Source: a virus
Lineage: Duplodnaviria > Heunggongvirae > Uroviricota > Caudoviricetes
DNA: 13,614 nucleotides
Strand: one strand, 5' to 3'
Virus record (IMG/VR): IMGVR_UViG_2648501498_000002
Positions 52 through 100 of this stretch are shown here, piece after piece. Made by a program: the position numbers and the translations under genes. Under the pieces are notes generated by a model. The model saw only the letters and a program-made list of their open reading frames with translations. It had not been told where the DNA came from and searched no databases. Every line of letters starts with the position of its first letter. Position 1 is the stretch's first letter.

Positions 52-100
52 CTGACAGACATCACAAATCCCCGGGTGGGGATTTGTGTATAAGAGACAG
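52..100. repeat. Short palindromic element with transposon-end-like arms, at the breakpoint of gene O
   Basis: Perfect 11-bp inverted repeat cacaaatcccc (63-73) / ggggatttgtg (78-88) around a central gggt. The right arm ends TGTGTATAAGAGACAG at 85-100, whose reverse complement CTGTCTCTTATACACA matches the first 16 nt of Tn5/IS50-type 19-bp ends as I recall them. The left arm starts CTGACAGAC at 52. Lambda-type iteron sequence begins abruptly at 101 with a partial iteron. Confidence 0.35.

Follow-up and report, generated by a model that had tools for sequence, protein, structure and literature searches.

It is highly probable that the DNA analyzed here (hereafter the window, meaning the whole stretch of 13,614 nt) bears the mark of a simple transposition of ISEc13 into the first iteron of a 933W-type ori inside gene O of a lambda-like prophage. 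On this reading, O was split, replication was very probably lost, and a hairpin near the tip of the insertion sequence (IS) would act as an insulator. By exact look-up of a 186-aa open reading frame (ORF), the window was identified as the entire contig JHSF01000111.1 (13,614 bp) of the short-read draft assembly GCA_001265845.1.

According to the proposed mechanism, ISEc13 (1,550 bp, cut-and-paste, IS4 family, IS50 group) would have jumped into iteron 1, duplicating CAAAACGAG. It would have landed with its transposase gene antisense to O and with its outside-end-like tip (82–100) abutting the 3' part of O. Residues 1–121 of O plus a seven-residue IS tail, and with them the whole iteron-binding domain, would have been left beyond the IS. 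The window side would have kept the C-terminal 194 residues, which recruit P, together with gene P, the A/T-rich region, and the five iterons that remained intact.

ISEc13 sequence at the left end of the window

Bases 1–100 of the window matched the transposase-proximal end of ISEc13 with 100% identity, as found in annotated copies from different contexts. They had no similarity to lambdoid phages, and none of them is O sequence. Aligning the window with three ISEc13 copies in unrelated contexts gave identity through position 100 and none beyond it, which places the IS/flank boundary exactly between 100 and 101, constant across four unrelated contexts. The features at this end were as follows.

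1–100, minus strand: terminal 100 bp of ISEc13, the outside-end-like, transposase-proximal end (100% identity to annotated copies)
82–100, minus strand: 19-bp terminal inverted repeat, CTGTCTCTTATACACAAAT, at which the transposase binds and cleaves (17/19 to the Tn5 outside end and mosaic end)

The coding sequence adjoining the annotated copies is that of an 'IS4-like element ISEc13 family transposase' (RefSeq WP_000244358.1). In these copies, the transposase gene starts 66 bp beyond window position 1, approximately 166 bp from the IS tip, and reads leftward and away. Comparison of two full copies gave a length of 1,550 bp for the complete ISEc13, with the opposite end reading CTGTCTCTTGATCAGATCT. 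Terminal inverted repeats of 19 bp, of the CTGTCTCTT... type, were present at both ends: at 82–100 in the window, and at the other end in the reference copies and in a sister genome described below. When used as a query, bases 1–100 matched 1,671 records (608 of them at ≥99% identity) in 1,610 of 5,426 complete E. coli genomes, at up to 31 places per genome. They matched 419 plasmids as well, many at 100%. The window did not differ from the catalogued copies in the available 100 bp, the remaining 1,450 bp lying outside it, and it shared with them the terminal repeat, the near-terminal hairpin, the exact end position, and a 9-bp target duplication. Judged by this identity over 100 bp with a fixed terminal base, positions 1–100 are the tip of the catalogued ISEc13 (IS50 group, IS4 family), a relative of Tn5/IS50.

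Relation to Tn5/IS50 and to sequencing adapters

The reverse complement of 82–100 is CTGTCTCTTATACACAAAT. It agreed at 17 of 19 positions both with the Tn5 outside end (OE), CTGACTCTTATACACAAGT, and with the mosaic end, CTGTCTCTTATACACATCT, as these reference sequences are given in PMC2566895 and PMC3347997. The first 16 nt from the ISEc13 tip (85–100) equal the mosaic end exactly, and the resemblance that the earlier note had pointed out is thus accurate in both respects. This was the one Tn5-end-like match in the window, with 0.00 expected over 200 shuffles. The transposase of the ISEc13 reference copies is a full-length homologue of the Tn5 transposase (E = 6e-84), although clearly diverged, and contains the Pfam domains Tnp_DNA_bind and DDE_Tnp_1. 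The far end of ISEc13, CTGTCTCTTGATCAGATCT, is presumably identical to the Tn5 inside end (IE) at 19 of 19 positions; the one literature record found in support is a primer of this sequence directed outward from the Tn5 Km cassette. Within the 82–100 repeat, TTATACACA resembles a DnaA box, a motif that the Tn5 outside end has too.

Like IS50/Tn5, ISEc13 has an outside-end-like repeat beside the start of the transposase gene and an inside-end-like repeat that overlaps the stop, it is associated with a 9-bp duplication, and it encodes a full-length homologous transposase between ends that match at 17/19 (OE) and presumably 19/19 (IE) positions. Unlike IS50/Tn5, it is a distinct element with a diverged transposase, and here it does not lie within a composite transposon. 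On the strength of these homologies, ISEc13 is a true IS50 relative, and 82–100 is its outside-end-like repeat. The larger mobile element that had been suspected to the left of the window is accordingly ISEc13.

A laboratory construct, namely an engineered Tn5 or mini-Tn5 mutagenesis insertion, had also been entertained for the region to the left of the window. It would account for ends resembling the Tn5 OE (17/19) and, at the far end, presumably the IE, but we consider it practically inconceivable: the element is the natural, widespread ISEc13 and not IS50, its transposase is clearly diverged from that of Tn5, identical copies occur in wild E. coli (approximately 1,600 genomes) and on 419 plasmids, and the insertion itself is found in gut metagenomes.

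Exceedingly improbable, too, is a library or assembly artefact, i.e., a Nextera/Tn5 mosaic-end adapter left untrimmed or a contig with a chimeric end. The 16 nt identical to the mosaic end do lie in sequence at a contig end. However, the complete mosaic end matches at only 17/19 positions, and the next 81 bases are genuine ISEc13 sequence (100% identity), on which grounds a Nextera adapter was rejected. Furthermore, seven independent assemblies (NCBI, ENA, Logan) share the junction, and a reciprocal junction with a target duplication exists. Since the first 16 nt of the ISEc13 tip equal the Nextera mosaic end, adapter trimmers may remove sequence from genuine reads at ISEc13 junctions, and contamination screens or reviewers may mistake the IS end for an adapter.

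Gene O, ori, and P to the right of the junction

Homology to lambdoid O/ori began at exactly position 101 with respect to every phage and E. coli record. From there, the window was 98.7–99% identical at the nucleotide level, without gaps, to O of 933W-type Stx phages and related prophages. The abrupt start of O and its iterons at 101 with a partial iteron, described earlier from the letters alone, was therefore confirmed, 12 of the 18 bp of iteron 1 being present. The features of this region were as follows.

101–112, plus strand: ori iteron 1, the 3' 12 of 18 bp, split by the insertion (alignment to annotated 933W iterons)
115–132, 134–151, 154–171, 178–195, and 201–218, plus strand: ori iterons 2–6, intact (direct-repeat family and 933W iteron coordinates)
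approximately 223–262, plus strand: A/T-rich region, intact, after the iterons
101–685, plus strand: 3' part of gene O, codons 119–312 and stop, in frame (identity to 933W-type O)
682–1383, plus strand: gene P, encoding the DnaB loader; it overlaps the stop of O, as is the case in lambda and 933W (PF06992 Phage_lambda_P; 933W gene order)

O is followed by P, nin, Q, lysis, and terminase genes. The open frame of the O remnant reaches back to GTG 86 inside the IS, with called starts at ATG 125 (186 aa) or GTG 86 (199 aa). Upstream, the O frame is closed by TGA at 53–55, the stop that had been noticed there, and the ORF reopens at GTG 86. ATG 125 is preceded by an iteron-derived GGAGG, 10 nt upstream. 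An outward-facing promoter in the IS end for the O 3' fragment and P was looked for, but a scan of 1–700 gave no sigma-70-like site on either strand, and tRNA and Rfam scans of the window gave no matches.

A Pfam search detected no domain in the O fragment of the window. The Phage_rep_O domain (residues 22–115) was found whole on a separate 128-aa fragment upstream of the IS. This agrees with the earlier observation that 1–100 does not encode the N-terminal domain of O, these bases being IS sequence throughout and the domain lying beyond the IS. The locus therefore has the array of 18-bp iterons and the A/T-rich region within the gene, with P immediately downstream, that characterize a lambdoid O/ori; the N-terminal domain and the C-terminal half, which a lambdoid initiator O combines in one polypeptide, lie on two.

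The window shares with the 933W O/ori the iteron sequences and their spacing, the O–P overlap, and the gene order, at 98.7% identity from 101. It is unlike 933W in that O is interrupted within iteron 1, at codon 121/119, and that the window contains no stx genes. Compared with 933W, the rest of the prophage is lambda/21-like, with an imm21-type repressor and lambda-like Nu1/A/W/B.

Reciprocal junction and target-site duplication in a sister genome

The reciprocal junction was predicted to join the 5' part of O, up to the first part of iteron 1, to the inside-end-like terminus of ISEc13, and was then searched for. It was found on IMG/VR contig 2645728091_000002 (L014) of a sister isolate genome, IMG 2645728091. 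Another contig of the same genome, _000003 (L004), has the right junction of the window and is 99.36% identical to window positions 14–11674. The junction on L014 reads O...ATCCCTCAAAACGAG on the O side and CTGTCTCTTGATCAG on the IS side; in a longer read, ...ATCTCAGAATGGTGCATCCCTCAAAACGAG is followed by CTGTCTCTTGATCAGATCTCC... In short, codons 1–121 of O are followed by CAAAACGAG and then by the other ISEc13 end. The same 9 bp start the O sequence of the window.

101–109, plus strand: right copy of the 9-bp target-site duplication, CAAAACGAG (same 9 bp before the other IS end in the sister genome)

In the intact O of 933W, and in a contig with an empty site (L012), CAAAACGAG is present as a single copy. 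Its presence on both sides of the IS and only once in intact O thus identifies it as a 9-bp target-site duplication, the left copy being read in the sister genome. As judged from these junction sequences, a duplication of this kind fits an IS50-type element and marks the event as a simple transposition.

Contig L014 also carries exo, bet, gam, N, an imm21-type repressor, cro, and cII, and the early region is thus intact upstream of the IS in the sister genome. We infer from this genome that the 5' half of O lies just beyond the IS in the window's own strain as well. For that strain, the expected left junction of a simple insertion would read ...GGTGCATCCCTCAAAACGAG followed by CTGTCTCTTGATCAGATC. 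The ORF at the left junction encodes 128 aa: O residues 1–121 and a seven-residue, IS-encoded tail, LSLDQIS. The exact 128-aa fusion ORF was detected on 10 contigs (NCBI, Logan, ENA) from the same kinds of sources as the 186-aa ORF; a protein search with it returned no representative of that exact length.

The window and L004 differed at 75 positions, 71 of which lay at 9–11.5 kb (cos, Nu1, and the 5' part of A) and two in the first 9 kb. The clustering of the differences points to one inherited insertion and a later recombination patch near cos/Nu1/A, and the patch looks like one exchanged with another lambdoid prophage. The sister contig diverges by 0.64%, but an old insertion was rejected as the explanation, since 71 of the 75 differences cluster at 9–11.5 kb.

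We also considered that recombination between IS copies, by deletion or inversion, removed or moved the 5' half of O together with the immunity region, leaving the window as the edge of a truncated remnant. ISEc13 is a multi-copy element, and some of its copies lack a matching target duplication, such as those on pMAR2 (two copies), indicating that such recombination happens; moreover, the left junction was read in the sister genome only. Nevertheless, we regard this scenario as quite improbable. In the sister genome, which departs from the window sequence at two positions over the first 9 kb, both junctions are found, the 9-bp duplication is perfect, and the early region is intact. Besides, the N-fragment fusion ORF is found on about as many contigs (10) as the C-fragment ORF (8 to 15), and both sets come from the same kinds of sources. 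Given the sister genome, an IS-mediated deletion of the 5' half of O in the window's strain is likewise unlikely. The disruption of O beside a Tn5/IS50-type end, which the earlier note had proposed, is best described as an interruption and not as a deletion, the reciprocal junction being present in the sister genome.

Occurrence of the insertion in other assemblies

The same IS/O junction was present at seven of the eight places shown with the 186-aa ORF (NCBI, ENA, Logan). With one exception (L008), the contigs with the junction end 28, 53, 53, 87, 95, or 100 nt into the IS, as expected from the k-mer-sized overhang that assemblers leave at an unresolved repeat. One of the contigs (L010) is of low coverage and has several mismatches in the IS end. 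In the window, O seems to start abruptly because the assembler stopped 100 nt into an unresolved multi-copy IS; the abrupt start is an assembly break at a repeat and not a biological end. The contig should be annotated as O::ISEc13 (gene O interrupted) and not as 'partial replication protein O'.

An empty-site allele was found in Logan contig SRR26895024_4574 (L012:1–90), where O reads from ...GAATGGTGCATCCCT straight into CAAAACGAGGGAGG, with no IS. The insertion is thus polymorphic among otherwise near-identical prophages. The exceptional contig (L008:1–271; NKPB01000079.1), from a third strain, contains 186 bp of ISEc13 followed by the end of an IS3-family element inside the transposase gene, the first 120 nt of which are present at the O junction. 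The ISEc13 copy there was thus itself hit by another IS. In view of this nested IS3-family element in the same copy of strain NKPB, the unassembled interior of ISEc13 at the window locus may not be intact either.

The O::ISEc13 insertion was also found in gut metagenomes. The exact right junction was absent from GTDB representative genomes and JGI metagenomes, and the left-junction pattern had no match in GTDB genomes. The junction was likewise absent from complete E. coli genomes and phage records, and no finished sequence spans the insertion. A literature search on the assembly accessions and ISEc13 returned nothing describing this O::ISEc13 allele.

A hairpin near the IS tip

The earlier note had described a 49-bp palindromic element at 52–100. 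A perfect stem of 11 bp is present there, but the outer 11–12 nt on each side of it are mostly unpaired, and the element is not a discrete one: the hairpin is native to every ISEc13 copy, and the 49 bp are simply the last part of a 1,550-bp IS.

63–88, no strand assigned: near-terminal hairpin with 11-bp perfect arms CACAAATCCCC and GGGGATTTGTG and a 4-nt loop (inverted-repeat search and folding)

In the stem, 63–73 pairs with 78–88. The folding energies were -18.6 and -21.5 kcal/mol on the plus and minus strands, respectively, with z-scores of -3.7 and -5.1 relative to shuffles. The opposite ISEc13 end is palindromic as well, reading CT[GTCTCTTGATCAG]ATCTC[CTGATCAAGAGAC] with 13-bp perfect arms (L002:1551–1583, L014:57–89). 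At each end of ISEc13, part of the terminal repeat recurs in inverted form after the repeat itself. To our knowledge, perfect near-terminal palindromes at both ends (11-bp and 13-bp arms) are not a form described for IS50.

A hairpin directly after the terminal repeat was present in five of six sampled plasmid variants and relatives, with differing stems and loops. It was retained in the Salmonella and E. fergusonii relatives (L016, L017). In Vibrio owensii (L018:175–274) and Rahnella (L019:174–273), the hairpin is followed by 7–8 T, forming a canonical intrinsic terminator that points into the element. ISPrst1 of Vibrio rumoiensis (L020) was without such a hairpin. In a simple terminator scan, the ISEc13 hairpin was not called, its tail being only U-rich (AUUUGUGAUGUCUGUC). 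Its conservation in relatives suggests that the ISEc13 hairpin is most likely a terminator-like insulator that would shield the transposase gene from flanking transcription. For IS biology, the conservation of a hairpin near the ends of IS50-group elements is a minor point that lends itself to testing.

Probable consequences for prophage replication

The domain roles of lambda O are established, the C-terminal part recruiting P–DnaB. Between the two halves of O lie a stop codon and at least 1.55 kb of IS sequence in antisense orientation, so that no single protein would both bind ori and load the helicase; in addition, iteron 1 is cut. Consequently, the prophage should not start its own replication unless a matching O is supplied in trans, and the loss of autonomous replication is very probable. 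The five iterons that remain could still be fired by O protein from another, 933W-type prophage resident in the same host. In E. coli genomes, 933W-type O genes were found at up to 32 places per genome (median one); as a genome often has several of them, complementation or recombinational repair is conceivable. When inducibility or the mobility of phage-borne genes is judged in this lineage, the prophage should be treated as probably replication-defective.

A different view of the split gene is that it is useful and that the prophage was retained for this reason. If expressed, the 128-aa fragment would have a complete iteron-binding domain and no means of recruiting P, and could occupy the origins of incoming or co-resident 933W-type (Stx) phages, blocking their replication in a dominant-negative manner; the iterons may in addition titrate foreign O. 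Were this true, the split-O fragment would represent a form of superinfection interference, but we think it very improbable and favor plain inactivation of O by simple transposition.

Such an event is ordinary and already known in kind: a catalogued IS in a prophage replication gene at the edge of a draft contig. IS-inactivated lambdoid prophages are known in pathogenic E. coli, for example the IS629-riddled prophages of O157:H7. There, and probably here as well, an IS in an essential early gene grounds the prophage, and other genes persist and recombine with co-resident phages; the present case differs in the IS and in the target.

Other features of the contig

Between Q and the holin gene, the interval in which Stx phages carry stx, the window contains a 247-aa ORF (5382–6125; Pfam PF27470 TfpB) and a 52-aa DUF3927 ORF (6211–6369). 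A 132-aa ORF on the opposite strand (6450–6848) had no family. All three are probably moron cargo. In the nin region, an MT-A70-family (adenine methyltransferase-like) gene lies between ninB and ninD (2180–2770). A pRha/ORF11CD3-domain gene (antirepressor-like, 8287–8904) and a DUF3950 gene (9092–9286), minus strand, are located between the lysis cassette and Nu1.

The right end of the contig (13614) falls inside the portal gene B and contains no IS sequence. The break at this end is probably due to collapse against other lambda-like prophages of the same genome. A metagenome scaffold of 20.5 kb (the source of L007) extends past the right end of the window.
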